Sequence record: NC_049824.1
Strand: one strand, 5' to 3'
DNA: 50,709 nucleotides
From: Escherichia phage vojen
The notes below the pieces were generated by a model, which did not search any database, had not been told where the DNA came from, and was given only the letters and a program-made list of their open reading frames with translations. Positions 803 to 50,709 of the stretch are shown piece by piece. The position numbers were made by a program, and so were the translations under genes. Each line of letters opens with the position of its first letter. Within the stretch, counting starts at the first letter, position 1.

Positions 803-1071
803 TTCTTGATCTCCTCAGCGATAAACTTCAATACCTTGCGCAGAGACACTTCATCATAGATTGTCGCTGGTAGTTCTTCCTTCACTTCTTGCGGCAGGTA
901 AATATTGCCGTGCCAGGTTAAGCAATCGTAGTTGATGCGGTAAGAGCAAAGCCACTCGCAATCGTTATCCGCCTCCCAAATGCAAAGTTGCATGACGTCG
1001 CCAAAATCTTCAACAGTCAGTTCCAGACCATGACGCTTAGCAAAGTTGAAAGTGGTTTTGCTGATGTTCAT
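799..1071 (-). CDS. hypothetical protein (90 aa)
   Basis: ORF with AGGAG RBS upstream of ATG at 1071; first gene of the minus-strand cluster. Confidence 0.6.
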   Translation of the reverse strand: MNISKTTFNFAKRHGLELTVEDFGDVMQLCIWEADNDCEWLCSYRINYDCLTWHGNIYLPQEVKEELPATIYDEVSLRKVLKFIAEEIKK

Positions 1072-1134
1072 CTTACCGTCTCCTGATTGGTGTCTCGTTT
1101 CGATGCGTGTAATGTACCCGATCAGGCTGATTCA

Positions 1135-1154
1135 GTTTTAACAAAAAGTGCTAT
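1135..1154 (-). promoter_or_regulatory. Conserved 20-bp element (minus-strand reading ATAGCACTTTTTGTTAAAAC)
   Basis: Exact match to the dispersed motif; lies upstream of minus-strand gene 799..1071; TACATT -10-like hexamer about 18 bp further on. Confidence 0.55.
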
Positions 1155-1440
1155 TTATCAACTGGCGATTATTCCATCTATTCCATTAATCAGGAATAAC
1201 AGGAATAACTCATTCGAGATCACATGGATTGTGAGATCTTGAGTTTGATCAATTTTAATCAGGTGATTAACTTTTTGTGTGGAGGGGATAGAGAAACTCG
1301 GTCCTCTTGCATCCTTTCCGGCAATCCTGGAGGGCGCAACTGTTGTCTTCTGTTATCGCTGTTATGCGTGTTATTCCGGCGTGGAATCGCATAACAAAAA
1401 ATAACAAGAAAAATCCATATAACATACTAAAAAATAAGGA

Positions 1441-1690: not shown

Positions 1691-1720
1691 TTGACACACC
1701 AGGTGACGGTAAATGATAAT
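1691..1720 (+). promoter_or_regulatory. Sigma70-like promoter for the plus-strand early block
   Basis: TTGACA (1691-1696), 18-bp spacer, GATAAT (1715-1720), about 30 bp upstream of the first early gene. Confidence 0.55.
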
Positions 1721-2471: not shown

Positions 2472-2477
2472 GCGGAA

Positions 2478-2497
2478 ATAGCACTTTTTGTTAAAAC
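2478..2497 (+). promoter_or_regulatory. Conserved 20-bp element ATAGCACTTTTTGTTAAAAC
   Basis: Exact motif; followed by inverted repeat CCAGG...CCTGG and CATAAT at an 18-bp gap. Confidence 0.55.
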
Positions 2498-2553
2498 GCC
2501 AGGTGCGAATCCTGGCATAATAGCCTCATCGAAACGAGATTGAGGAAAACAAA

Positions 2554-2739
2554 ATGGCACGTCGCATCACCAAAGACCTTAAAGTTCTGAACAAAGAAAA
2601 CGTAGTTAAAATCCTGGTTATCTGGGGATACAACGAAGAAGCAGCAAAGCAGAAGGTAGAAGCAGGTTATGAGCTGGCTGTAAAAGCAATGCCAAACGAC
2701 GACGCAAAAGGTATTGCAAACTATGTAGCTTTCTTTTAA
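2554..2739 (+). CDS. hypothetical protein (61 aa)
   Basis: ORF with GAGGAAAA RBS. Confidence 0.5.
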   Translation: MARRITKDLKVLNKENVVKILVIWGYNEEAAKQKVEAGYELAVKAMPNDDAKGIANYVAFF

Positions 2740-2940: not shown

Positions 2941-2960
2941 ATAGCACTTTTTGTTAAAAC
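2941..2960 (+). promoter_or_regulatory. Conserved 20-bp element ATAGCACTTTTTGTTAAAAC
   Basis: Exact motif directly after the stop codon; AATAAT at an 18-bp gap. Confidence 0.55.
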
Positions 2961-3038
2961 TCAAAAACGATAACCAGGAATAATAAATCACATAGGGCGG
3001 CACGGCGTCGCCCGCAAAACCAATCAGGAGAAATCACC

Positions 3039-3971
3039 ATGTTAAAACTTGCTGACATTAAATTCCCGATCACCTTCGAATCTCGCGGCGTTGGTCATTT
3101 CATGTTTACCGACGAGAATACATGCACTAAGTTTAACGAATACGGAAGTCCAAACGCTTCAACAATGGAGATTGAACACTTCATTGAAGCGCACAATAAA
3201 CACTACAACTCACTTCGCGACTACGGCTATGCAATGCCAGGATACACCTGTTTTCACTACAAGCCATATAAAGGCCAGGTGTTACCAATGCGCGCACAGG
3301 ACATTGCGAGCGCTGCGACTTATGCGCGGGCAATTCACGCGCCAGAGAATGCAGAGCCACTAGTAAAAATGCACGCCTGCGACTACAAAAAATTGTGGTG
3401 CTTAAGCGTGGATAACATCAAGTATCCGATCGTATTCCGCACGGTTGGTAACTCAACGATTCGCTATACGTCACCAGACAACGGCGTTTATAGCGATGGT
3501 CAGAAATCAGAGTTGAAAGTTGATTTCTTTGTCAACGCTCATAACAAATTCAATCCACACAATGAAGAAGATAAGGTGTACTACGTGGAAGACATTACAA
3601 AACACTTGTTTGGAGAAACACCATTCGGCGGCGGAAAGACGTCAATTCAAGAAATCATTGGCGAGGAGATCCACAAGGCAGCCGTTGAAATGAAAGCGCC
3701 TGGAGGCTGGCGTATTGATAAGAGCGCCTTTGCCAATCAAGAAATCGTAACGCAGGGCGCCATTGAAGATATGCCAGTTGCCGCCACACTAAAAGGCGTT
3801 CAGCTTGATGATGGTATGTGGTTTGAAGTAACGGCAAAGCCAAAGACGATCGAGATTCATGATGATGTTGTTATTCTTCTGCTTCATTACGGTAGCGCAA
3901 AAAACCGTACCGTTGCGGGTGAGATTAGCATCAAGCGCGGAACGATGGTTAAGTGGAAGGTTAAGGTGTAA
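3039..3971 (+). CDS. hypothetical early protein (310 aa)
   Basis: Long ORF with AGGAGA RBS; no motif I can recognise. Confidence 0.65.
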   Translation: MLKLADIKFPITFESRGVGHFMFTDENTCTKFNEYGSPNASTMEIEHFIEAHNKHYNSLRDYGYAMPGYTCFHYKPYKGQVLPMRAQDIASAATYARAIHAPENAEPLVKMHACDYKKLWCLSVDNIKYPIVFRTVGNSTIRYTSPDNGVYSDGQKSELKVDFFVNAHNKFNPHNEEDKVYYVEDITKHLFGETPFGGGKTSIQEIIGEEIHKAAVEMKAPGGWRIDKSAFANQEIVTQGAIEDMPVAATLKGVQLDDGMWFEVTAKPKTIEIHDDVVILLLHYGSAKNRTVAGEISIKRGTMVKWKVKV

Positions 3972-3991
3972 ATAGCACTAATTGTTAAAAC
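3972..3991 (+). promoter_or_regulatory. Conserved element, variant ATAGCACTAATTGTTAAAAC
   Basis: Variant motif; TATAAT (4009-4014) sits inside a GGCC...GGCC dyad at a 17-bp gap. Confidence 0.5.
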
Positions 3992-4044
3992 TCAAATGTG
4001 GGGCCAAGTATAATGGCCTCACTTTCAACGAAGGAGATAAAACG

Positions 4045-4275
4045 ATGTACATTAACAAGAAGATGAAATGCATTTCCGTTAACTATGGTTGCTCTGGCAT
4101 GTTCAAGCCTGGCGAAATCTATATGGCGCAAAAGTTGAAATCATCAACCGGATCTTTTTACGTGAGAAATAGTAAGGGGCATCGCATGTTCCTGAACGGT
4201 GGTGAAGGCACTAAGGTTATGGCACACGCTATGGTAATTGCTGAATTTGAAGAGGTGAAAGATGGAAACAAATAA
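4045..4275 (+). CDS. hypothetical protein (76 aa)
   Basis: Start moved from the ORF-track TTG at 3982 (inside the motif) to ATG with AAGGAG RBS. Confidence 0.5.
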   Translation: MYINKKMKCISVNYGCSGMFKPGEIYMAQKLKSSTGSFYVRNSKGHRMFLNGGEGTKVMAHAMVIAEFEEVKDGNK

Positions 4276-4483: not shown

Positions 4484-5034
4484 TAGTTTTGATAATGAAA
4501 AAATACGAATTTGAACTTTGGGGAAGCAAATACCATTTTTCCACGAGCAAGCCGATTGTTGTAGTTGACCTTGACGGCACGTTATCCGATGGAACGCATC
4601 GCTTGCACCTGCTGCCGACAGAAGATTTGCACCTTACAGAAAGCTGGTCTGAGTTCAATAAGGCGGCTGTTGGAGATTCGCCGATTAAGAGCACGGTTGC
4701 AGTGGTTAACGGATTGTGGATGTCAGGATTTGCAATCGTTATCCTGACAGGGCGCAGCGATGAGGTGATGGCTGACACCTGCGACTGGTTAAATTATAAC
4801 GGCATCAAGTACGACGCGTTAATCATGCGCCGCAAGGAAGATAATCGAAAAGACACGATCATCAAAGAGGAAGTCTTGCGAGCTATCGGACTGGAAAACA
4901 TTGTGTGCGCTTTTGATGATTCGCCGAACGTGGTTAAGCACTTCCGCAGCCTGGGAATCACAACCTATCAGGTCACGGAATACGACAAGCCACATAATCA
5001 TATCAAATCGCATGGCGTGGAGGAATTGAAATGA
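4480..5034 (+). CDS. HAD-superfamily phosphatase (polynucleotide 3'-phosphatase / nucleotidase-like)
   Basis: VVVDLDGTL motif (HAD motif I, DxDGT) near the N-terminus; later Asp-rich motifs. Confidence 0.6.
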   Translation: MIVLIMKKYEFELWGSKYHFSTSKPIVVVDLDGTLSDGTHRLHLLPTEDLHLTESWSEFNKAAVGDSPIKSTVAVVNGLWMSGFAIVILTGRSDEVMADTCDWLNYNGIKYDALIMRRKEDNRKDTIIKEEVLRAIGLENIVCAFDDSPNVVKHFRSLGITTYQVTEYDKPHNHIKSHGVEELK

Positions 5035-5192
5035 CCTGGTTACTTTTAATCTTTGTCACAAGTTACAATTCCGCCGCTATTGAATCGCAAGAGTTCCACG
5101 GCGAATCAAGATGCCAGGAAGCACGAAAACAAGTTGTTCTCCACATGTCAGATAGTGGGAAAGATGTAACAGCGCTATGCGTTCGTAAATAG
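5031..5192 (+). CDS. small hypothetical protein with hydrophobic N-terminus (53 aa)
   Basis: ATGA overlap with the upstream stop; GGAGGAA RBS; TAG stop lies inside the next motif copy. Confidence 0.3.
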   Translation: MTWLLLIFVTSYNSAAIESQEFHGESRCQEARKQVVLHMSDSGKDVTALCVRK

Positions 5193-5208
5193 CACTTTTT
5201 GCAAAAAC
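5189..5208 (+). promoter_or_regulatory. Conserved element, variant ATAGCACTTTTTGCAAAAAC
   Basis: Variant motif; TATAGT at an 18-bp gap inside a GGGCTT...AAGCCC dyad. Confidence 0.5.
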
Positions 5209-5263
5209 ACATTATCGGGCTTGCGGTATAGTAAGCCCATCGACAACAAGCGAGGATTAAATC

Positions 5264-5527
5264 ATGGTTAATAAAGTTGAGTTTTTCAAAGCGGTGGACG
5301 TTATTGATGGTGCGCCTATCTTCTTTGCTATCCATTCTATTGACGGCGAGGATATTGGGTACAATGTTATCCGTCGAGATGGAATCTCAAAACTTAGCGA
5401 TCTTGTGAGTGTTATTGTGGCAAACGGAAAATGTGTATGGCACGATTCGCCACGAGAGCCGCGCCGCCGCGACATGCAAAATCCAGTTCTGCTTTACACG
5501 CTGGTAATTGAAGGAGTCAACAAATGA
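5264..5527 (+). CDS. hypothetical protein (87 aa)
   Basis: ORF with GAGGA RBS. Confidence 0.55.
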   Translation: MVNKVEFFKAVDVIDGAPIFFAIHSIDGEDIGYNVIRRDGISKLSDLVSVIVANGKCVWHDSPREPRRRDMQNPVLLYTLVIEGVNK

Positions 5528-7551: not shown

Positions 7552-7839
7552 ATGGCTAAAAGCAATCGTAAAATGTTGATTAACGCATTCGAAAAGGCAG
7601 CGCTTGAGCGTGGTTGGAATGACTCATTTCACACGGCAAACTGTATCCGACGTTACGGATTCAAGAATTGCCGATCCTGGGCGCGTCAAATGGCTTCATG
7701 GTATGATCTTGATGCGCATTACCTTGATATGGATTGCGCTCTGGTTGAAATGATTGAGCAGGCAGCATTAGAGGATCGACCATTAACGCAATCTGATTTT
7801 GACGATTTTGTGCGCGATGAAATCTATTACATGAGCTAA
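7552..7839 (+). CDS. hypothetical protein (95 aa)
   Basis: Start moved to ATG with AAGGAGG RBS; TAA stop abuts the next motif copy. Confidence 0.55.
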   Translation: MAKSNRKMLINAFEKAALERGWNDSFHTANCIRRYGFKNCRSWARQMASWYDLDAHYLDMDCALVEMIEQAALEDRPLTQSDFDDFVRDEIYYMS

Positions 7840-7858
7840 TAGCACTTTTTGTTAAAAC
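7839..7858 (+). promoter_or_regulatory. Conserved 20-bp element ATAGCACTTTTTGTTAAAAC
   Basis: Exact motif sharing a base with the upstream TAA; TAAAGT-like hexamer at an 18-bp gap. Confidence 0.5.
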
Positions 7859-7914
7859 TTCCGCGAGGGCATTTGTTAAAGTGTCCTCATTGAAGCGAAA
7901 CAGAGGAAATCAAA

Positions 7915-8127
7915 ATGAAAATTCGAATCACCAGGGTTGACATTGACCGCAACGACGGAAGCATTACCCTTGAGCAATGCGGGTTCAAAGTTGGTGACAT
8001 TGTAGAGGTTGACGGATTCTTTCGCGATGGCTCTTACTGCGTGTTAGCAATCCGCAACACAGAAGAAATTCGAATCGGTGATAACATCGGCGTAAATCAT
8101 GACGAATGCGAGGTAGTAGAAGAATGA
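7915..8127 (+). CDS. hypothetical protein (70 aa)
   Basis: ORF with AGAGGAAA RBS. Confidence 0.55.
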   Translation: MKIRITRVDIDRNDGSITLEQCGFKVGDIVEVDGFFRDGSYCVLAIRNTEEIRIGDNIGVNHDECEVVEE

Positions 8128-16345: not shown

Positions 16346-16365
16346 CGTTTAACAAAAAATGCTAT
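16346..16365 (-). promoter_or_regulatory. Conserved element, inverted relative to the downstream plus-strand gene
   Basis: Plus strand reads TTTAACAAAAAATGCTAT; orientation is opposite to the canonical arrangement. Confidence 0.4.
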
Positions 16366-20039: not shown

Positions 20040-20045
20040 TCACAA

Positions 20046-20067
20046 GGGGCGTTGCGCCCCTTTTTTT
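20046..20067 (+). terminator. Rho-independent terminator
   Basis: GGGGCG-TTG-CGCCCC hairpin followed by TTTTTTT. Confidence 0.85.
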
Positions 20068-20106
20068 GTTACTGTACAATCAAGCTACACGATTCATAAT
20101 CAATTC

Positions 20107-20125
20107 TTTTAACAAAAAGTGCTAT
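20107..20125 (-). promoter_or_regulatory. Conserved element, inverted relative to the downstream plus-strand gene
   Basis: Plus strand reads TTTTAACAAAAAGTGCTAT immediately before the RBS of the tail chaperone gene. Confidence 0.45.
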
Positions 20126-30465: not shown

Positions 30466-30492
30466 GGGCTTTCGCCCCTTTATTTTTATTTA
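30466..30492. terminator. Bidirectional intrinsic terminator
   Basis: GGGGC-TTTC-GCCCC hairpin flanked by A-run upstream and T-run downstream, between convergent genes. Confidence 0.8.
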
Positions 30493-30717
30493 CAGACTGC
30501 AATCAGCGTTTTTAAAGTTGTCAATGTTTACCCACTGAAAATTAAACGGATAGCCAGCCTTAACAAGAGTGCGGTCGCCAACTCGTTTTACTCCGAAAAT
30601 AGCAACTGAATACTGCATTCCGCTATTTTCATAAATAGCCGTGCATTCACGTTTAGGCATATTTGCGCACCCAGTCAGGGTTACGGTGGCAATCAAAGCG
30701 GCGATAAATTTTTTCAT
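30490..30717 (-). CDS. small outer-membrane lipoprotein, candidate superinfection-exclusion protein (Cor/Llp-like)
   Basis: Signal peptide with lipobox LTGC; mature ~58 aa with two Cys; GGAGA RBS; sits beside the host-range genes on the opposite strand. Confidence 0.5.
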   Translation of the reverse strand: MKKFIAALIATVTLTGCANMPKRECTAIYENSGMQYSVAIFGVKRVGDRTLVKAGYPFNFQWVNIDNFKNADCSL

Positions 30718-30771
30718 CTTGGTGTCTCCTTAGTTGTTGTTGGTTGCAACTATACACGATCTTGCGGTGTG

Positions 30772-30791
30772 CGTTTAGCAAAAAGTGCTAT
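30772..30791 (-). promoter_or_regulatory. Conserved element, variant (minus-strand reading ATAGCACTTTTTGCTAAACG)
   Basis: Variant motif upstream of the lipoprotein gene with TATAGT at a ~17-bp gap. Confidence 0.5.
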
Positions 30792-30920
30792 TCTTGTTCT
30801 TTTGTTATTCGGTGTTCTTAAATCTGCGGAGGCTTAAATTTAGCTCAAAATGTGAGCAACAATAGAGCGCTATACATACAGATAAATATATATACATACA
30901 TACAAATCAATAAGTTAGTA

Positions 30921-38956: not shown

Positions 38957-39430
38957 TTAGCAATTAGTGCTTTCAGGTTTATACAGGAATCCGCCAGGTT
39001 CATAATCTGACATTCTTACCACTCGCAACATTTCACGCTTATCACATCTCTTTGTGAGCGGTTTTCCATTGGAATCAAATCGCAGATCTGGACGGCAGAA
39101 TGAAGCGCGATAGCCTTGACAGCCATACTTTTTGTAATCGTTATGCACCTTTTGAGCGCCAGCGGCTGAAATCATACCGCGAACGCGCCACTGATTTACA
39201 GTTTGCTGGCTAACGTTAAGACGCTTTGCCATTGCTGACACGCTGCCGTAATACTCAATAAGAATGTCAAGCCGTGCTTTTAGTCCGGCGCGCACTTCAT
39301 CTTTTAAAACATAGTATCCTGTAGGGCGCTTGCGCTTTTTCTTATCTTTACCCCGTCGAGTTCCGTTATTGCCATTGATTGTGCGTTTGTCAATCTTACC
39401 AGTTGATACTGCGATTCGCTGTTCTTTCAT
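38957..39430 (-). CDS. putative DNA-binding regulator (basic N-terminus, HTH-like segment)
   Basis: KDKKKRKRP basic stretch; LNVSQQTVNQWR HTH-like segment; GGAGA RBS; start abuts a conserved element in the divergent region. Confidence 0.5.
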   Translation of the reverse strand: MKEQRIAVSTGKIDKRTINGNNGTRRGKDKKKRKRPTGYYVLKDEVRAGLKARLDILIEYYGSVSAMAKRLNVSQQTVNQWRVRGMISAAGAQKVHNDYKKYGCQGYRASFCRPDLRFDSNGKPLTKRCDKREMLRVVRMSDYEPGGFLYKPESTNC

Positions 39431-39444
39431 TATTCATTCTCCAA

Positions 39445-39464
39445 TAGCATTTTTTGTTAAACGA
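39445..39464 (+). promoter_or_regulatory. Conserved element, variant ATAGCATTTTTTGTTAAACG
   Basis: In the divergent region between the HTH gene and helicase; TATTAT at a ~16-bp gap. Confidence 0.5.
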
Positions 39465-39519
39465 TGATTTAATGATTGTGTATTATACACGCCAAATGGC
39501 ATTACTCAAAGGTTTTAGA

Positions 39520-41565
39520 ATGATTCCAAACATTGAAAAGCAAATATCAGCACTTGGTGAAGCGGTAATTAAATCCATTCAGGAGCGATTCACTGTTGGC
39601 GAGATTGTGCCTTACCCTTACCAGTGCGTTGCATACGCTGAGATCGCAAAGCGTATGAAAAATTATGAGCATCCATTCTTTGTTAAAGCGTCCGTATCGG
39701 CTGGCAAAACATTGATGTTTGCAATGGTTGCTCACCAGTGCCGGAAAATGGGCTTGAAAATGATGGTACTTGCTCGCCAGGCTGAGATTGTGGATCAGGA
39801 TTCTGAAGAGATAACAAATCTTGGTGTGCCGAACTCCATCTATTGTGCAGGACTGAAGACAAAAAGCGCATACTTTCCGATCGTTGTTGGTTCTGAGGGA
39901 ACTGTAGTTAATGGACTGTTTAAAGCGCTTGGCGACTATGTTCCGCACGTTATCGGGATCGACGAGTGTCACCAGGTGGATTGGGAAGACCTTGCCGACG
40001 CAATAGAGAAAGACGAGTCATTTTTACAAATGACAACTAAGAAAGGCGAAAAAGTACCAAATCCAGATTATGACATAACAAAGGGAAGCAGGAACAGAAA
40101 TACAGAGTTCCTGATTGGTGAGGATGGCTTGCCAATGGAGGGAACAGGCCGCACACAATACACTGTCATTATCATGGAAATGATGCGCCGCTGCCGGAAA
40201 ACATATGGTCATGAACTGCGCATATTTGGCATGACTGGATCGGAGTTTCGCGGCGTAGTCCCGATCCTGGTGGAAGACAAAAAACAGAAAGGATTCTGGC
40301 GTGAACAGGTTACTAATATTGACACCAACTACCTGATCAAATTCGGTTCTGTTGTGCCAACAAATTTTGGCGACGTTGGCGATCTAGGGTATGACCTTTC
40401 AGAGTTTGAGGCATCCAGTGAGGATGGCGTTGCAGACTTTGACGCTAAAACGCTTCGCAGGATGGAACAAAAAATTCATGAAGAAGCGACCATGACAAAG
40501 CGCATCATGGCGAAAGTTCACGAGATCTGTAAAAACCGCAACGGCGTACTTGTGACATGTGCAGGAGAAAGGCATTGCAAAGAGGCAGCGGCAGCGTTGC
40601 CACCTGGAACGACTTACAGGATAATTACTGGTAAGACTGGCGACAATCAGCGCAAGGAGTGGTTAAGGGAAGCATACGAAGGGAAAGTAAAATACATCTT
40701 CCAGGTTCAGGCGCTAACAACTGGCGTTAACGTGCCGTTTTGGGATACGTCGGTTATATTGCGTAAGATTGGATCTCTTACGTTGCTGATTCAGCTTTTA
40801 GGACGCGGAATGCGACTTCTTAAGAAATGGCATAAGGAGCAAGGCTTCAAGAAAGATGATCACCTGGTTATGGATTTTTCAGGAACGATGGACGAGTTAG
40901 GTGAGCTTTATTTTGATCCGATACTTGAACAGGCGCAGCATCAGAAGCGATTCAGGAACGGTAAAGATCCGAAGCCTTGTCCTGTTTGTGGAACTCTTAA
41001 CAGCTATTATGCTCGTCGTTGTATGCACGTAGACGAAAACGGCAACAGATGCGAGTGGTTCTTTAAATTCAGGACATGTGATGATCAGATTGACCCACGC
41101 ACTAAAAAGATTATTCAGCGCGGCTGTGGAACTAAAAATGATATTGCGGCCAGGGTATGCAGACATTGCGACATGTCATTGATTGACCCTAACGAGAAGT
41201 TAAGCGGAAAGCACTACACAAAAAACGACTGGTTTCAGGTGCAATCTTTCTCGGTTGACATGACGAAAAACCAGAAAGGGATAATATTTAATTATGAGCT
41301 TTCCGATGGCATAGACACTTTCAGAGCGCGTGAAATATTTTTCCCTGAATCAGAAAGCCAAATTTGTCGCGCAAAATGGAGAAATGTTGCTCTTAAGCAC
41401 ATACCGGATCGCCGTATTGCTGGCATGGTGGCGAGCTATCGTAATGCACGTAAAATCATGCAATATGTGAATCACATCATGCCGCCATCGCGTGTTACTC
41501 ACAGAAAGACTAGCAAGAGTGAAGATAATTTGTACAAGAAGGACTTTAATTATGGCAATGACTGA
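39520..41565 (+). CDS. SF2 DNA helicase with C-terminal zinc-ribbon motifs
   Basis: Walker A SAGKT; DExH-like GIDECHQ; C-terminal CPVCG...RRC and CGTKN...CRHC; start moved from in-motif TTG to ATG. Confidence 0.65.
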   Translation: MIPNIEKQISALGEAVIKSIQERFTVGEIVPYPYQCVAYAEIAKRMKNYEHPFFVKASVSAGKTLMFAMVAHQCRKMGLKMMVLARQAEIVDQDSEEITNLGVPNSIYCAGLKTKSAYFPIVVGSEGTVVNGLFKALGDYVPHVIGIDECHQVDWEDLADAIEKDESFLQMTTKKGEKVPNPDYDITKGSRNRNTEFLIGEDGLPMEGTGRTQYTVIIMEMMRRCRKTYGHELRIFGMTGSEFRGVVPILVEDKKQKGFWREQVTNIDTNYLIKFGSVVPTNFGDVGDLGYDLSEFEASSEDGVADFDAKTLRRMEQKIHEEATMTKRIMAKVHEICKNRNGVLVTCAGERHCKEAAAALPPGTTYRIITGKTGDNQRKEWLREAYEGKVKYIFQVQALTTGVNVPFWDTSVILRKIGSLTLLIQLLGRGMRLLKKWHKEQGFKKDDHLVMDFSGTMDELGELYFDPILEQAQHQKRFRNGKDPKPCPVCGTLNSYYARRCMHVDENGNRCEWFFKFRTCDDQIDPRTKKIIQRGCGTKNDIAARVCRHCDMSLIDPNEKLSGKHYTKNDWFQVQSFSVDMTKNQKGIIFNYELSDGIDTFRAREIFFPESESQICRAKWRNVALKHIPDRRIAGMVASYRNARKIMQYVNHIMPPSRVTHRKTSKSEDNLYKKDFNYGND

Positions 41566-41983
41566 TAAAGGCGATTATCTGGAGTTTTACGAAAGAGATC
41601 CGACGGATACGCTAAAAGAGGAATCTCACCAGATCGGGGCGTTTCAATGGTTAACTTATGCTCATCCTGAATTTCTTGCCTGGCATACTAAAAATGAGGG
41701 CGACAAGGGGATCGCCACCGCAATGATGGATCAGCAAGCAGGACTCGTTAAGGGCGTAAGTGATTTTATCATCCTGATTGGATTGAAAGGCCGCTACCCT
41801 TTCGCGGCTATTGAGATGAAACGCGTCAATAAGTCTGGCAAGGGTAAGTCTTCACCAGTCAGCAAGGATCAAAAAGCCTTCTTGCGTCGTGTGCGTGAGC
41901 TTGGCGGATTCGCTGCCGTAACATACGGATATAAGCAATTCATGATCGCGGTAGAATACATGATAAATAGCACTTTTTGTTAA
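41552..41983 (+). CDS. VRR-NUC-like nuclease
   Basis: C-terminal segment with SDFIIL...AIEMKR consistent with a PD-(D/E)xK/VRR-NUC core; last five codons encoded by the next motif copy. Confidence 0.5.
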   Translation: MAMTDKGDYLEFYERDPTDTLKEESHQIGAFQWLTYAHPEFLAWHTKNEGDKGIATAMMDQQAGLVKGVSDFIILIGLKGRYPFAAIEMKRVNKSGKGKSSPVSKDQKAFLRRVRELGGFAAVTYGYKQFMIAVEYMINSTFC

Positions 41984-41986
41984 AAC
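41967..41986 (+). promoter_or_regulatory. Conserved 20-bp element ATAGCACTTTTTGTTAAAAC
   Basis: Exact motif followed by GGCGC...GCGCC dyad and CATAAT at an 18-bp gap. Confidence 0.55.
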
Positions 41987-42044
41987 AGGCGCGAAGGATT
42001 GCGCCATAATAACACCAGTTCAACAAGCAACAGGTAATTAAGAA

Positions 42045-42746
42045 ATGAGTAAAGAAACTGAAGTGACATTTGAACAAATAGAAAGAGAAACATTCATTGG
42101 CAATGCTCTTGCTACTGGAGGCCATTACCAGGCTGTTAAACCAAATCAATATTATAAAGTCACTGGCAACCGCTATAACGGCAGCAATACGCCGGACGTT
42201 GTGCGCGATTTGTGGTCTACGCCGTATGAGCTTGTCGCATGGATGGAAAGCGAATACGGTGATTATGACATCGACGCGGCGGCAAGCAAAGAAAATGCTG
42301 TATGTGAAAAATTCTACAGCAAGGAAACAAATTGTTTAAAGCGTTGGTGGGGTAGTAATAAGCATATATGGCTGAATCCACCGTACAGCAATATTACGCC
42401 ATTTGTTAAGAAGGCGATTGAGCAAATGGAGCACGGAAACCAGATCGACATGCTTTTACCTTGCGACACGTCAACAGGATGGTTTTATGAGGCGCAACAG
42501 CACGCAGCGGAAATAATCTGGATCACTGGAGAAGTTTACCAGGAGGACGGAACAGAATATTCCCGCACCGGACGCCTGGCGTTCACTTCAGCGCTTACAG
42601 GTAAACCAGTGCAGGGTAACAATAAAGGAAGCGTTATTTTCATCATGCGCGAACTTAAAGAAGGTGAGCAGCAGAAAACGCGATACGTTAAAATCAGCGA
42701 CATTTGCCCTTCGGTGGCAGACCGTCGCGCACGGAAACGGAGCTAA
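42045..42746 (+). CDS. dam: DNA N6-adenine methyltransferase (phage Dam-like)
   Basis: NPPY catalytic motif (LNPPYS) in a 233-aa protein. Confidence 0.7.
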   Translation: MSKETEVTFEQIERETFIGNALATGGHYQAVKPNQYYKVTGNRYNGSNTPDVVRDLWSTPYELVAWMESEYGDYDIDAAASKENAVCEKFYSKETNCLKRWWGSNKHIWLNPPYSNITPFVKKAIEQMEHGNQIDMLLPCDTSTGWFYEAQQHAAEIIWITGEVYQEDGTEYSRTGRLAFTSALTGKPVQGNNKGSVIFIMRELKEGEQQKTRYVKISDICPSVADRRARKRS

Positions 42747-42750
42747 AACA

Positions 42751-42990
42751 ATGCAGAAAGAAAGAAGCGTTTATTTAAATGAAACTGGCGAATGGTTGTT
42801 ATTTCGCGCTATGGTTTGCGAGGCGCTTGATAAAAACGATTTCATAAAACCGCTATTAGGTTGCGATCCGTGGGAGTTTACAAGCGCTCTTGACATGAGC
42901 TTTGAGGAAACAAGAAAACTACCACTTGAAAAATGGCATGAGCAGATCGGTAAAGACTTGCAAGAGTTTTACGAATCCGCGTCAAAATAG
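42751..42990 (+). CDS. hypothetical protein (79 aa)
   Basis: Start moved to ATG with GGAG RBS; TAG stop lies inside the next motif copy. Confidence 0.45.
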   Translation: MQKERSVYLNETGEWLLFRAMVCEALDKNDFIKPLLGCDPWEFTSALDMSFEETRKLPLEKWHEQIGKDLQEFYESASK

Positions 42991-43006
42991 CACTTTTTGT
43001 TAAAAC
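42987..43006 (+). promoter_or_regulatory. Conserved 20-bp element ATAGCACTTTTTGTTAAAAC
   Basis: Exact motif followed by GCCCGG...CGGGC dyad and CATAAT at an 18-bp gap. Confidence 0.55.
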
Positions 43007-43063
43007 GCCCGGCCTTGTGTCGGGCATAATTATTTCAACGAAACAAACATGAGGAAATAAAAA

Positions 43064-43243
43064 TGGTAGTATACAGCAAGAAAGCATTTGACCAGGCGCA
43101 ACAAACAGCACGCGAGGCGGTAAAAGGTGGAACGAAAAACAATATGCAGCTTGATTGGGGAGCGGCAATGATTCTGCTTCGCGTTGCATATGGTCACTAC
43201 CCATTAGGATTTGCGGAGGCATATTATAAGCATGAAGGTTGAA
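43064..43243 (+). CDS. small hypothetical protein (59 aa)
   Basis: ORF below the track cutoff with GAGGAAA RBS downstream of a motif copy. Confidence 0.35.
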
Positions 43244-46466: not shown

Positions 46467-48050
46467 TTACCCCAGCAATGTTGGATTTACGAAAACAACG
46501 CCATTAATCACACAAATATAATTTCTTTCCTCAAGCATCGGAAGCAGTTGCGTTTCCATGCGCTTCATTACGCCAGCCTGACCAACAAAAGGCTTAACTT
46601 TTCGTGCAGCCTCATATATGGCGCGCACATTCAAGATCCCCTTGTTAGCCTTACCGTGTCGAGTGATAATCTCGATTAGTTTGCCCATTTCAGCATCATC
46701 ACCAGCATAGCCAGAAGCGTTGGCGGCGCTAATGTATGTTTTGCTCAACTCGCTAAACATCAGCAGTGCTTCTTGAACGGTTTCAACTTCAATCTCTTTC
46801 GACTTCTGAGGGTATCCACCAGGATTAAACCAGTTGCGGATAGTGTGCAAAACCGAAGCAATCCTGATCACCTGCTTATCCATTTTGCCAAGAGCACCGC
46901 GCAGCATTGTATGCGAATACTTTCCGCCATCAGCAAGGTGCGGCTCCATCTCCTGACGAGCCATGTTAAGAACTCGCATTGCTGATTTGCTGATCTTAAG
47001 CTGGATGTTTGATTCACTCATGATGTTATGGATCAGCTTAAAATATTGACTTTTCAGTTCTCCATCAACAGGCTCATAAGTAGAATCACCGTTATCATCA
47101 ACAAACTTTCGACGACCTAAAAATGATTCCTCACGCACAAGCAAATAACGCTCACTCACACCGATACCGCGCGATCCTGCATCCATGATGGCATTGATTG
47201 TTTCATCCTGGGCAATCACCGCCATACAGCCAAGAGCTTTAAAACTCATATTGTTGTCAGCGTTTGCACGAGCTATAGAAACATGACCATGATCCCATGC
47301 TTTCAGCACAAGTTCGCTGTTGGTTTTACGTTCGCCATTAGCATATGTCAGACCTAAAAGGCTGTTAATACTCGTTGCCTCGTCTGAAATCACAGCAAAG
47401 TTACCCTGGCGATTGTTGATTCTTGCAAGTCCTTCCGGCGTGGTGTCGGACACAGGGAAAACAATGTCACACATCTTTTCCAGTTTTTCTTCCAGATCTT
47501 CTTTCTCTTGGTATAGCGATTCCATATCAGCACCAGATCGCTCGCTCTTCATCTCTTTTGCAAGACCTGCCAACTTTGCCTGAATCTTTTTCCGCTCCTT
47601 CTTTCGCTGATCATTAATTCTTTCCACTTCAGCAACCATAGGAGCAAGAGCCAGGCTGTTAACGGCAGATTTACCAGTTGAAGGAGGCTGGCTTGTGACA
47701 ACATAAAGAGCGGTTGGCTGATCCGTTCCGTGATACTCAACCGTGAATCGTCCAAGCATTGCAGCAGACACACAGCCGATAAAATGCATATATGCCGATG
47801 ATTCAGGGAATTGAACAGATCGAGCAATGTTGCGCGCCAACTTGCCAACAACATCAACATCATTGCCAAGAGAAATTACAGGGTAGCGATCGTTTCCGTT
47901 ATTAACATCATTAACCTCACCCCAAAAGCTGGACGATTGACGGTATCCGTTAGCCTGAATGGACACGCGCACCGGAGACAATCCTTGTGCATCAGCTAAT
48001 TCGATAATTTGTTTTGGTGTTAGTTTATTGGTTTCAAACGAAAAATTCAT
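46467..48050 (-). CDS. P-loop ATPase, putative replicative helicase / primase-associated ATPase
   Basis: Walker A QPPSTGKSA; start moved to ATG with AAGGAG RBS. Confidence 0.45.
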   Translation of the reverse strand: MNFSFETNKLTPKQIIELADAQGLSPVRVSIQANGYRQSSSFWGEVNDVNNGNDRYPVISLGNDVDVVGKLARNIARSVQFPESSAYMHFIGCVSAAMLGRFTVEYHGTDQPTALYVVTSQPPSTGKSAVNSLALAPMVAEVERINDQRKKERKKIQAKLAGLAKEMKSERSGADMESLYQEKEDLEEKLEKMCDIVFPVSDTTPEGLARINNRQGNFAVISDEATSINSLLGLTYANGERKTNSELVLKAWDHGHVSIARANADNNMSFKALGCMAVIAQDETINAIMDAGSRGIGVSERYLLVREESFLGRRKFVDDNGDSTYEPVDGELKSQYFKLIHNIMSESNIQLKISKSAMRVLNMARQEMEPHLADGGKYSHTMLRGALGKMDKQVIRIASVLHTIRNWFNPGGYPQKSKEIEVETVQEALLMFSELSKTYISAANASGYAGDDAEMGKLIEIITRHGKANKGILNVRAIYEAARKVKPFVGQAGVMKRMETQLLPMLEERNYICVINGVVFVNPTLLG

Positions 48051-48101
48051 TGATGATAACTCCTTTTTGATGCGGCAATAATACCGCACCAATGCTACCC
48101 G

Positions 48102-48121
48102 CATTTAACAAAAAATGCTAT
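48102..48121 (-). promoter_or_regulatory. Conserved element, variant (minus-strand reading ATAGCATTTTTTGTTAAATG)
   Basis: Variant motif followed by TGCGG...CCGCA dyad around TATTAT at an 18-bp gap; overlaps the TAG stop of gene 48118..48339. Confidence 0.5.
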
Positions 48122-48339
48122 TTGATCCGCTCTATGCTAACTAAGATTTTTTCTGGTTCCTTTGCACTATGGCAATGCGCGGTTACAGAATCAACAAAAT
48201 CAAAGTAAAGTGATTTGTGATATGAAAATCCAATCAGCCACCCAACCATCGTTTTCTTTATTGGCCTGACTATATCGCCAGGCCTGAAGGTTTTTGTTGC
48301 TGATTGAGTCACCTTATAGCGATATTCAGTCTTGATCAC
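48118..48339 (-). CDS. hypothetical protein (73 aa)
   Basis: ORF with ATGA overlap to the upstream gene. Confidence 0.45.
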   Translation of the reverse strand: MIKTEYRYKVTQSATKTFRPGDIVRPIKKTMVGWLIGFSYHKSLYFDFVDSVTAHCHSAKEPEKILVSIERIK

Positions 48340-48722
48340 TTATACATGGCCTCAAACAAATGACAGCCACCAGCGGAAAACCCTACTTCTTCGCGGTATA
48401 GCGTCCAGCGATCGCCAGCTTCATCAAACACATAACCAGCAACATCGCCAAGAGCGCGGCCTTGCTCAATCTGGTAGCGCTTTCCTTCTTTGAAATGCTT
48501 TTTGCAAGGGATCTTGTGATCTACAAAGGTGCATTTAATTGTTTTTGTCTTGATATGACGATAGTCAGACTCAACCGCGTTTTGCCACTTGCTACCCTTT
48601 GTAATGCTCTTTACCTGGAATTGTTCCAACTCGATCACATCATCGCTACCAGCAATTTTTTCGTATACGGTTTTATAGCGCCCGTTCATCAAAACGTTGG
48701 TTTTATTGCAGATAACTTTCAT
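48336..48722 (-). CDS. hypothetical protein (128 aa)
   Basis: ORF with GGAGA RBS downstream of a complete motif/dyad/CATAAT module. Confidence 0.55.
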   Translation of the reverse strand: MKVICNKTNVLMNGRYKTVYEKIAGSDDVIELEQFQVKSITKGSKWQNAVESDYRHIKTKTIKCTFVDHKIPCKKHFKEGKRYQIEQGRALGDVAGYVFDEAGDRWTLYREEVGFSAGGCHLFEAMYK

Positions 48723-48777
48723 CGTTTATTTCTCCTTTCGTTTCGGTGAAGTGATTATGCCAGGCTTTTACACCTGG

Positions 48778-48797
48778 CTTTTAACAAAAAGTGCTAT
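48778..48797 (-). promoter_or_regulatory. Conserved 20-bp element (minus-strand reading ATAGCACTTTTTGTTAAAAG)
   Basis: Exact motif followed by GCCAGG...CCTGGC dyad and CATAAT at an 18-bp gap, then RBS and ATG of 48336..48722. Confidence 0.55.
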
Positions 48798-49498
48798 TTT
48801 GCGTTAGCTTCAAAGACTGCGCGGGCAAAACCGCGCGGGGTGAGGGAGCGGATCATCTTTGTGCGAGATGATTTTCCGCCAGTTTTGGCCCAACCAGGAT
48901 TATCCTTCTCAGTTGGTAATATCATGTTTTTAGGTGGAACGATAAATCCGTTACCAGTCCAAAGGCATGTTTTCTTAAAGTACCGATCCCGCGCAGGAAT
49001 AATATCAGGGAAGTCGGGATGTTTATCATCTTCCGGTAAATATCCGGCGTAATCGCACGGATGGAACGTGTAATCAGGCTTACGCCATAACGTTGACAGC
49101 TTGCCTACAGGATTCTCTATCATGTAAGGAACACCGAAATAATCAGCGATATGCGCGGCTATTTTGCAAGTGTCGGCGGCCTCATTTTGGAAGTTAGGAT
49201 TTTCCATGCGCTTTTTAGCCCAATGGCGAGATCCGCTGTTTGCTAATTGTGTGCAAGGTGGGAAGGCCATAATGAAATCAGGCTTACCCCAATTTTCAAG
49301 TTTTGCGGTATATTTGAATAGATCATCAATCCACACATTAACGTAAAAAATATTATCATGGATTATGCGCACTGAGTGGTAATCTCCGTGATCAGCATCA
49401 TCGTAATTAAAGCAAATGCATTTATATCCATCATCAGCCCAATCTTTAACAGCCTTACCAGATCCATCAAACAAAGAGAAAATTAAACCTTTATACAT
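48794..49498 (-). CDS. DNA cytosine-C5 methyltransferase-like protein
   Basis: Motif I-like LFDGSGKA, PC-containing motif IV-like FPPCTQ, ENV-like MIENPVG; 234 aa is short for this family. Confidence 0.5.
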   Translation of the reverse strand: MYKGLIFSLFDGSGKAVKDWADDGYKCICFNYDDADHGDYHSVRIIHDNIFYVNVWIDDLFKYTAKLENWGKPDFIMAFPPCTQLANSGSRHWAKKRMENPNFQNEAADTCKIAAHIADYFGVPYMIENPVGKLSTLWRKPDYTFHPCDYAGYLPEDDKHPDFPDIIPARDRYFKKTCLWTGNGFIVPPKNMILPTEKDNPGWAKTGGKSSRTKMIRSLTPRGFARAVFEANAK

Positions 49499-50438: not shown

Positions 50439-50635
50439 TAGATGATCTCCATGTATGTTTCAAAGCCATTTAACTTGAACAGGCCGTTTTCACATTTGCG
50501 CACGTTCCAAGTTAGCCCTGAGTGGTACGCCTCCATATCATCAAGATCAATGGTGATTTCAACGCCTTTCTTAAATAAGCCTTTTTCGTGAGATTTGTCG
50601 CGCTTAACCACTTTAACATCAACCTGATTTTCCAT
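50438..50635 (-). CDS. hypothetical protein (65 aa)
   Basis: First ORF downstream of the motif copy at the window end. Confidence 0.5.
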   Translation of the reverse strand: MENQVDVKVVKRDKSHEKGLFKKGVEITIDLDDMEAYHSGLTWNVRKCENGLFKLNGFETYMEII

Positions 50636-50690
50636 TTTTTAATCCTCGTTCGTTGTCGATGCGCATAATATACCAATCAGAGGCGCATCG

Positions 50691-50709
50691 GTTTTAACAA
50701 AAAGTGCTA
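50691..50709 (-). promoter_or_regulatory. Conserved element, truncated at window end
   Basis: Plus strand reads GTTTTAACAAAAAGTGCTA, preceded by GATGCGC...GCGCATC dyad enclosing an ATAAT-like hexamer. Confidence 0.5.

Follow-up and report, generated by a model that had tools for sequence, protein, structure and literature searches.

The DNA window analyzed here is the whole 50,709-nucleotide (nt) stretch of Escherichia phage vojen (NC_049824.1), and the element in question is a short intergenic repeat that, together with a variable GC-rich stem-loop, appears to form a promoter cassette that recurs in the gaps between early and non-structural genes. The first 12 kb of the window show 93-94% identity to Shigella phage ESh4/pSf-1 and to the Escherichia phages damhaus, herni, aaroes, and grams; since these matched relatives belong to Hanrivervirus, the phage is evidently a T1-like siphophage (Drexlerviridae, Tempevirinae, Hanrivervirus). 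The repeat core, GCACTTTTTGTTAAAAC, occurs in 15 copies against 0.39 expected when up to three mismatches are allowed. All 15 copies, named here by their lowest core coordinate, are intergenic, and 13 of them aim at a downstream start codon; the two orphan copies (16346 and 20106) are oriented against the late genes.

The motif is the 21-nt direct repeat aaATAGCACnnnTTGnTAAAA published for phages TLS, T1, Rtp, and Rogue1 (German et al. 2024, PMC11447400), which, like the repeat in the window, is oriented with transcription and lies ~76 nt 5' of start codons. In the searchable literature only the TLS paper contains the motif; two further genome papers on T1-like phages are silent on it, and no Rfam family matches anywhere in the window. 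The 2024 re-annotation of TLS found three sigma-70-like promoters and no more, proposed a stoperator, an enhancer site, or a UP-like element as the function of the repeat, and named that function among the open questions on T1-like phages, which are reported to encode neither RNA polymerase nor sigma factor (PMC11447400). Unlike the present finding, the TLS paper describes a bare repeat and mentions neither a -10 at fixed distance, nor a conserved start or leader, nor stem-loops or dyads (PMC11447400).

Promoter Anatomy of the Cassette

We scanned IMG/VR with the exact repeat pattern and obtained 120 loci in T1-like genomes (including T1, TLS, and Rtp), giving 352 unique copies. When these are aligned on the repeat, a -10 hexamer starts exactly 18 nt past it in 295 of the 352 copies, with the profile T 64%, A 89%, T 79%, A 59%, A 57%, and T 89%. 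The A at -11 and the T at -7, at 89% each, follow the classic conservation of a -10, and a G at -14, present in 85% of the copies, is that of an extended-type -10. The discriminator is C-rich in the aligned cassettes, and the predicted start, C(-1)A(+1) followed by the leader TCGAAACGA, is conserved across the cassettes and the phage family (A+1 88%). For the leader, equivalent to 2527-2540 of the window, start-site context, 5'-end stability, and a translation signal are candidate roles.

The cassette begins where the preceding gene stops, the 21-nt repeat AAATAGCACTTTTTGTTAAAAC taking in that gene's stop codon at its 5' edge, and continues through the -10, the discriminator, and the leader to the Shine-Dalgarno (SD) sequence and the ATG, which lie 50-60 nt past the repeat. 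In the family copies, ~81% of the co-directional upstream open reading frames (ORFs) end on TAA or TAG inside the repeat and, read directly from the sequences, a T four bases ahead of TAG means that the element stops all three reading frames. Because the -10 stands at a fixed 18 nt, with the G at -14 and the conserved A(+1)TCGAAACGA leader, the repeat is best described as the upstream half of a promoter and the whole element as a promoter cassette. The sequence between and around these fixed elements varies, and the GC-rich hairpin is built there. A conventional -35 was sought in the repeat itself, where TTGTTA (TTGnTA) was rejected as the hexamer since its spacer to the -10 would be 22 bp. 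No acceptable -35 stands at 17-19 bp, where the hexamers AAAACN, TAAAAC, and TTAAAA are poor, and a consensus promoter scan recognized only one of the 15 window copies.

Position and Stability of the Stem-Loops

The first-pass annotation had described GC-rich dyads of differing sequence in the spacer between repeat and -10. All six dyads that it listed are present in the sequence: GCCAGG/CCTGGC at 2498-2516, GGCGC/GCGCC at 41988-42005, GCCCG(G)/(T)CGGGC at 43007-43025, GCCAGG/CCTGGC at 48759-48778, TGCGG/CCGCA at ~48067-48092, and GATGCGC/GCGCATC at 50657-50690. The cassettes with stem-loops are as follows.

2476-2556 (+): cassette with AAATA plus the GCACTTTTTGTTAAAAC repeat at 2481-2497, a spacer stem-loop, -10 CATAAT at 2516-2521, predicted +1 A at 2528 in CATCGAAACGAG, SD, and ATG at 2554; the upstream gene ends at 2471
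2498-2516 (+): stem-loop GCCAGG-N7-CCTGGC inside the spacer (class A); RNA -11.5 kcal/mol
2944-3041 (+): cassette with repeat at 2944-2960, -10 AATAAT at 2979-2984, and ATG at 3039; no spacer dyad
2995-3013 (+): stem-loop GGGCGGC-N5-GTCGCCC in the leader, 3' of the -10; -13.6 kcal/mol
3975-4047 (+): cassette with repeat at 3975-3991 (2 mismatches), -10 TATAAT at 4009-4014, and ATG at 4045
3998-4022 (+): stem-loop GTGGGGCCA/TGGCCTCAC with the -10 in its loop (class B); -15.5 kcal/mol
5187-5266 (+): cassette with repeat at 5192-5208, -10 TATAGT at 5227-5232, and ATG at 5264
5217-5238 (+): stem-loop GGGCTTGC/GTAAGCCC enclosing the -10 (class B); -14.9 kcal/mol
7837-7917 (+): cassette with repeat at 7842-7858, -10 TAAAGT at 7877-7882, and ATG at 7915
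7862-7897 (+): stem-loop GAGGGCATTT/AAAGTGTCCTC enclosing or overlapping the -10; RNA -15.6 kcal/mol sense against -6.0 antisense
41965-42047 (+): cassette with repeat at 41970-41986, -10 CATAAT at 42005-42010, and ATG at 42045 (DNA methyltransferase)
41988-42005 (+): spacer stem-loop GGCGCGA/TTGCGCC (class A); -11.4 kcal/mol
42985-43065 (+): cassette with repeat at 42990-43006, -10 CATAAT at 43025-43030, and ATG at 43063
43007-43025 (+): spacer stem-loop GCCCGGC/GTCGGGC (class A) with one G.U pair; terminator-like on the sense strand by consensus scan
48048-48123 (-): cassette with repeat at 48102-48118 (3 mismatches), -10 TATTAT at 48078-48083, and ATG at 48050 (DNA helicase)
48067-48092 (-): stem-loop enclosing the -10 (class B); -16.5 kcal/mol
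48720-48799 (-): cassette with repeat at 48778-48794, -10 CATAAT at 48754-48759, and ATG at 48722
48760-48777 (-): spacer stem-loop CCAGG(T)/(G)CCTGG (class A); -9.2 kcal/mol
50633-50709 (-): cassette with repeat at 50691-50707, -10 TATATT at 50667-50672, and ATG at 50635; its upstream side lies beyond the window
50657-50690 (-): stem-loop CGATGCGC/GCGCATCG enclosing the -10 (class B); -14.2 kcal/mol

Folded on both strands against shuffled controls, the dyads stand well above chance. The summed minimum free energy (MFE) of the 36 nt after the 15 copies, taken as sense RNA, is -137.7 kcal/mol, compared with -75.2 +/- 7.9 kcal/mol for dinucleotide shuffles (z ~ -8), and the best of 300 shuffles reaches -107.5 kcal/mol; the antisense strand of the same segments gives -100.1 against -69.4 +/- 7.9 kcal/mol (z ~ -3.9). 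When 2498-2516 is folded as DNA, z is ~ -3.9 on either strand. Across the family, 71% of the 352 copies have a fold of -8 kcal/mol or lower within 40 nt, compared with 20% of the shuffles, and a strand-symmetric dyad finder returned 234 strong dyads against 71-83 in shuffles.

The placement in the spacer holds for part of the copies. In four of the 15 (2481, 41970, 42990, and 48778) the dyad lies wholly in the 18-nt spacer, whereas in five (3975, 5192, 7842, 48102, and 50691), including two that had been taken for spacer dyads, the arms flank the -10. One copy (2944) has its hairpin in the leader, at 2995-3013, and five (1135, 16346, 20106, 30772, and 39447) have no significant hairpin. The form enclosing the -10 is also the commoner one in the family, with 162 of 249 strong hairpins against 87 in the spacer; the right-arm offsets peak at 12-18 and, more often, at 21-33.

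The stems do differ between copies, as had been described, but not each time: one form, CGATCGGGG...CCCCATCG (TCGATCGGGGtgg..TATAGTtACCCCATCGA), recurs in the family, and its right arm is the conserved discriminator and leader. It might be asked whether the dyads have any function of their own or arise as a by-product, whether because the spacer is GC-rich, because the leader is conserved, or because cassettes undergo gene conversion with each other. The commonest form, one arm of which is the conserved CCCCATCGA leader, is found in many copies, so that part of the apparent excess is shared ancestry, and five of the 15 window copies do without a hairpin. Such a by-product is nevertheless very improbable and is largely refuted by the observations: shuffles that keep the composition fold far less well, different copies have unrelated stems at one and the same place, the presence of a hairpin is tied to gene context, and orthologues show two-sided compensatory changes with G.U intermediates.

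Selection on Structure

These changes bear on a further claim of the first-pass annotation, that the element is selected as a hairpin and not as a protein operator, which is borne out by the variation of the stems, by compensatory double changes, and by swaps of the hairpin position in orthologues. Orthologous cassettes, grouped by their downstream gene, carry different stems at the same place, such as GGGGTAAT/ATTACCCC, GGGGTGAT/ATCACCCC, and GGGGCAAT/ATTGCCCC, with G.U or mismatch intermediates. Orthologous promoters, including the orthologues of the 2481 cassette, also alternate between spacer hairpins and hairpins that enclose the -10. In an alignment of 19 spacer-hairpin sequences, 13 of them orthologues picked by downstream gene only, 92.5% of the cells pair, compared with 72% in shuffled and 20-42% in slid alignments, the first percentage being inflated because some rows were selected for folding in that register; six of the seven pairs show two-sided change. 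The dyads are, on this comparative evidence, real and selected, and selection appears to act on structure and not on position. An operator of the MerR type in a long spacer was considered and rejected because the dyads differ between copies.

Strand Preference of the Hairpins

With strand-symmetric scoring, internal G.T pairs outnumber A.C pairs by 48 to 6 in the sense reading, and by 22 to 4 after collapse to 85 helix families (binomial p=5e-4). The fold over the family is -10.4 kcal/mol for the sense and -8.9 kcal/mol for the antisense strand, whereas shuffles give -5.7 and -6.2 kcal/mol, so that composition alone favors the antisense strand. The sense strand is the more stable one in 53 of 90 sequence clusters and the antisense strand in 36 of 90 (p=0.018). 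Hairpins that work on the sense strand only include a seven-member orthologue cluster with a mid-stem G.T and the stem-loop at 7862-7897, which is stable there alone because two G.U pairs are needed. Folded with DNA parameters, the hairpins reach -3 to -6 kcal/mol. The G.T excess, the better sense folding, the sense-only hairpins, and the weak DNA folds together point to a hairpin that acts as a single strand of sense polarity, most simply RNA. Its left arm lies mostly 5' of the predicted start and, in the commoner class, its right arm reaches to about +5; the hairpin RNA would therefore have to come from upstream transcription.

The opposite polarity had been raised in the first-pass annotation as an alternative, namely, antisense terminators in which the hairpin followed by GUUUUAAC stops polymerase moving against the genes and so shields the promoters, or in which termination is bidirectional. 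The adjacency still supports it: GUUUUAAC does follow the antisense hairpin because the left arm starts 0-2 nt past the repeat in 67% of the strong hairpins, four or more of the 8 antisense tail positions are T in 76% of these, and the consensus scan marks 42005-41988 (-) as terminator-like. The antisense fold, at z ~ -3.9, beats the shuffles as well, and the antisense repeats of the late region (16346 and 20106) could be a source of antisense transcripts. However, every sense G.T is an antisense A.C, with 22 against 4 helix families; examples are 7862-7897 (-15.6 sense, -6.0 antisense) and the one whole orthologue cluster with the mid-stem G.T. Many hairpins that enclose the -10 begin 6-9 nt from the repeat, which leaves the U-run not adjacent; the GTTTTAAC tail is set by the repeat and is conserved also at the copies that have no hairpin. 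Nor does an antisense role predict the missing hairpins at divergent and first promoters. Given the helix families, the better sense folding, and the dependence on gene context, we regard antisense or bidirectional termination as unlikely.

A structure at the DNA level, where a cruciform or single-stranded DNA hairpin tunes promoter opening (in a supercoil-dependent or N4-type manner) or promotes recombination between cassettes, is quite unlikely. The -10 does lie in the loop in the commoner class, both strands beat the shuffles as DNA, and recombination breakpoints fall on the cassettes; G.T is moreover the least destabilizing DNA mismatch, and a hairpin in the non-template strand would be compatible with the strand asymmetry. 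On the other hand, the hairpins are weak as DNA, with stems of 5-8 bp and loops of 4-14 nt, and stems so weak and short are poor substrates for cruciform extrusion; a cruciform was rejected on these folds. It would also require both strands, yet A.C mismatches are tolerated on one of them. The position of the hairpin relative to the -10 is not conserved even in orthologues, first and divergent promoters of the same type lack hairpins, and no RNA polymerase or sigma factor is reported for T1-like phages (PMC11447400). An N4-type hairpin promoter was rejected on the loops of 4-14 nt, the variable stems, and the same report on the polymerase.

Gene Context and Termination Signals

The hairpins follow the arrangement of the genes. 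Family copies at which a co-directional ORF ends at the repeat (n=288) have a mean fold of -11.0 kcal/mol and are strong in 78%, whereas divergent or other copies (n=37) have a mean of -6.9 kcal/mol, near the level of the shuffles; the effect holds over ORF-length thresholds. In the window, all 10 copies downstream of a co-directional gene run carry a hairpin, counting copy 50691, whose upstream gene lies past the window end. The five copies without a hairpin are the first leftward promoter, two divergent promoters, and the two orphans.

1069-1156 (-): cassette without hairpin; repeat at 1135-1151, -10 TACATT at 1111-1116, ATG at 1071; first promoter of the leftward operon
30715-30793 (-): cassette without hairpin; repeat at 30772-30788 (3 mismatches), -10 TATAGT at 30749-30754, ATG at 30717 (Cor-like); divergent from an exonuclease gene
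39442-39522 (+): cassette without strong hairpin; repeat at 39447-39463 (3 mismatches), -10 TATTAT at 39481-39486, ATG at 39520 (helicase); divergent from a helix-turn-helix (HTH) regulator gene
16346-16362 (-): degenerate orphan repeat with 3 mismatches, antisense in the late structural operon; no good -10 and no hairpin
20106-20122 (-): orphan repeat with 1 mismatch, antisense between late genes; no spacer hairpin

Upstream of copy 1135, curated relatives have ~680 bp of non-coding sequence with no gene annotated.

A minority of the hairpins are canonical sense terminators, such as 43007-43025 (+) by consensus scan and T62 and T57 of TLS. The latter two, directly past DR12 and past DR10, respectively, are listed in Table S1 of the TLS paper as rho-independent terminators on the strand of the repeat (PMC11447400). 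The loop of T57 holds the -10-like TATCAT. For most hairpins, the sense U-tract expected of an intrinsic terminator fails, with at least 5 T of 8 in the sense tail in only 14%.

The lack of a U-tract after the hairpins that enclose the -10 would be explained if the polymerase were not stopped at all and the hairpins served RNA processing or stability only, the polycistronic read-through RNA being cut by an endonuclease in the flanking A/U-rich repeat and the new 3' or 5' ends being protected. This reading shares the sense-strand and upstream-gene evidence with termination or attenuation, and the hairpin does stand between A/U-rich single-stranded flanks, CUUUUUGUUAAAAC upstream and AACGAAAC downstream. 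The stems, however, are too short for RNase III, and some hairpins have U-tracts and are published as TLS terminators. We give processing as the sole role a small chance, and it overlaps an attenuator instead of excluding it.

Sequestration of the SD by the C-rich discriminator in read-through RNA only, with the left arm as an anti-anti-SD, was tried and rejected. The predicted accessibility of the SD is 0.40 in read-through RNA and 0.65 in primary transcripts, but natural and shuffled upstream sequences do not differ (0.397 vs 0.373, p=0.13), and deletion of the left arm leaves the accessibility unreduced.

Proposed Role of the Stem-Loops

We put at roughly 55% the probability that the dyads are the stem-loop part of promoter/attenuator cassettes that resemble the promoter-early stem-loops (PeSLs) of T4-like phages and act on sense read-through RNA. 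By analogy, the hairpins most likely damp or cap the transcripts that come from the upstream gene. The hairpin would form in sense-strand RNA and, lying 5' of or across the predicted start in most copies, could do so only in read-through from the upstream cistron; the leader hairpin at 2995-3013 would also sit in the cassette's own transcript. Read-through would be attenuated or terminated at the hairpin and the upstream mRNA would keep a protective 3' hairpin; this would insulate the individual cassettes and leave every downstream gene to its own promoter. As a by-product, the conserved cassettes of ~60 nt would offer homology patches for swapping small ORFan genes between related phages. No new principle is claimed, and the mechanism is derived from sequence.

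Several points weigh against attenuation of read-through RNA. The family copies come from related phages and are not independent of each other, the strand asymmetry drops to p ~0.02 once related copies are clustered, and the context effect is weak among exact-motif copies, few of which are without an upstream gene. The 8-nt sense tail averages 3.8 T after spacer hairpins and 0.85 T after those enclosing the -10; since most hairpins have no sense U-tract, the canonical rule makes efficient intrinsic termination doubtful in the greater part of them. The constant antisense tail GUUUUAAC lies within 2 nt of 67% of the hairpins. The upstream element of the promoter is the 21-nt repeat and not a canonical -35, and in the searchable literature we found no transcript mapping for any T1-like or Drexlerviridae phage.

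A variant that needs no U-tract is a hand-off by termination and restart, where a polymerase that has read the upstream gene sheds its transcript only a few nt from the next -10 and start and is recycled to that promoter, converting read-through into fresh transcripts with the standard AUCGAAACGA 5' end. This would account for a stem-loop placed inside the promoter rather than before it. E. coli RNA polymerase can reportedly stay on DNA after termination and re-initiate nearby, according to single-molecule work, but we consider the hand-off distinctly improbable.

The attenuator cassette predicts that transcription starts at the A of CATCGA (CATCGAAACGA), that 3' ends on the sense strand map to the hairpins, and that the promoter depends on recognition of the repeat by a factor of phage or host. 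The open question on the 21-nt repeat thereby becomes testable in a group whose transcription program is essentially unmapped; T1-like phages are often met as laboratory contaminants and are candidates for phage therapy.

Other Features of the Window

A near-consensus sigma-70 promoter, TTGACA-18-GATAAT (11/12), lies at 1691-1720 (+) in the non-coding stretch ~1152-1751 and precedes the first rightward early gene (1752-2222, DUF7174); its equivalent in TLS is P01. Since this sigma-70-like promoter fronts the first rightward early gene and TLS has P01, the order suggests that a host-type promoter comes first and the repeat-type promoters afterwards. A 157-amino-acid protein encoded at 38957-39430 (-), divergent from repeat copy 39447, matches PHROG 2856 'transcriptional regulator' (E 3e-78) and shows a sub-threshold Cro/YdaS-like HTH; it is a candidate reader of the 21-nt repeat. 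Repeat-type cassettes are predicted to drive two DNA methyltransferase genes (42045-42746, +, and 48794-49498, -) and a Cor-like superinfection-exclusion gene (30490-30717, -).

Copies similar to the orphan at 16346-16362 occur at the same place in related phages. The other orphan, 20106-20122 (-), aims into a strong hairpin, GGGGCGTTGCGCCCC, at ~20044-20062, which has A7/T7 flanks, stands between two late plus-strand genes, and looks like a bidirectional terminator. The arrangement at 20044-20122 could yield a short antisense RNA.

Signature of Cassette Shuffling

Compared with six Hanrivervirus relatives, the homology of the window breaks or resumes at 2475-77, 2924-39, 5187-88 (four phages), 5266, and 7917, and in four relatives it resumes exactly at 5187-5188. 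Internal ends of high-scoring segment pairs in the IMG/VR loci fall in cassette intervals in 36%, compared with 2-4% expected from coverage, an enrichment of at least 8-fold. Phages grams and BEK12B are without the cassette genes of 2481-2944 (2554-2940). Close relatives differ in having or lacking entire cassettes of small genes, and these differences have their edges on the repeats (intervals 2223-2940 and 5031-5187). Of the six relatives, at least five lack the ORF at 5031-5192 or carry a replacement for it. The small cassette genes match DUFs or PHROGs of unknown function.

Comparison with Known Systems

Like intrinsic terminators, the T1-like hairpins have a GC-rich stem of 5-10 bp and a short loop, lie 15-25 nt past a stop codon, and in some cases have U-rich tails; unlike them, most have no sense U-tract and overlap the next promoter. 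On the antisense strand, GUUUUAAC is adjacent in ~2/3, but A.C mismatches and a weaker fold go with it. In the promoters of the N4 virion RNA polymerase and in the spacer operators of MerR, a dyad likewise lies in or next to the core promoter. In the case of N4, however, a conserved stem of 5-7 bp with a 3-nt loop serves a phage RNA polymerase, whereas the T1-like loops measure 4-14 nt and the stems vary in sequence and position. The MerR sites have one conserved dyad in a spacer of 19-20 bp, whereas the T1-like dyads again vary in both respects.

The closest known system is the PeSL cassettes of T4-like phages. PeSLs and their middle-promoter counterparts (promoter-middle stem-loops, PmSLs) were described in the T4-like phages RB49, phi1, PST, and nt-1 (Arbiol et al. 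2010, PMC2839356; Comeau et al. 2014, PMC4122927). One PeSL stem-loop cut lacZ read-through as strongly as rrnB T1 (PMC2839356), and PeSLs flank ORFans and mediate modular shuffling (PMC2839356; PMC4122927). There are clear differences between the two: the T1-like cassettes occur in another phage family, of siphoviruses, with no sequence relationship; they have a 21-nt phage-specific repeat and an extended -10 where the PeSL has a -35 hexamer and a UP element; their stems are not polyG/polyC; and they are known from sequence alone, whereas promoter, terminator, and mini-circle data are experimental for PeSLs. Both are repeated intergenic composites that run from the upstream stop codon in A/T-rich sequence through promoter elements to the SD and ATG. 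In both, a variable GC-rich stem-loop sits in one of three places, past the upstream box but ahead of the -10, surrounding the -10, or 3' of it (4, 5, and 1 copies, respectively, in the window); small ORFans are flanked, and the breakpoints of indels or replacements between close relatives fall on the element. Promoter/stem-loop cassettes, previously described only in T4-like myoviruses, may be a convergent means by which lytic phages insulate and shuffle small accessory genes.

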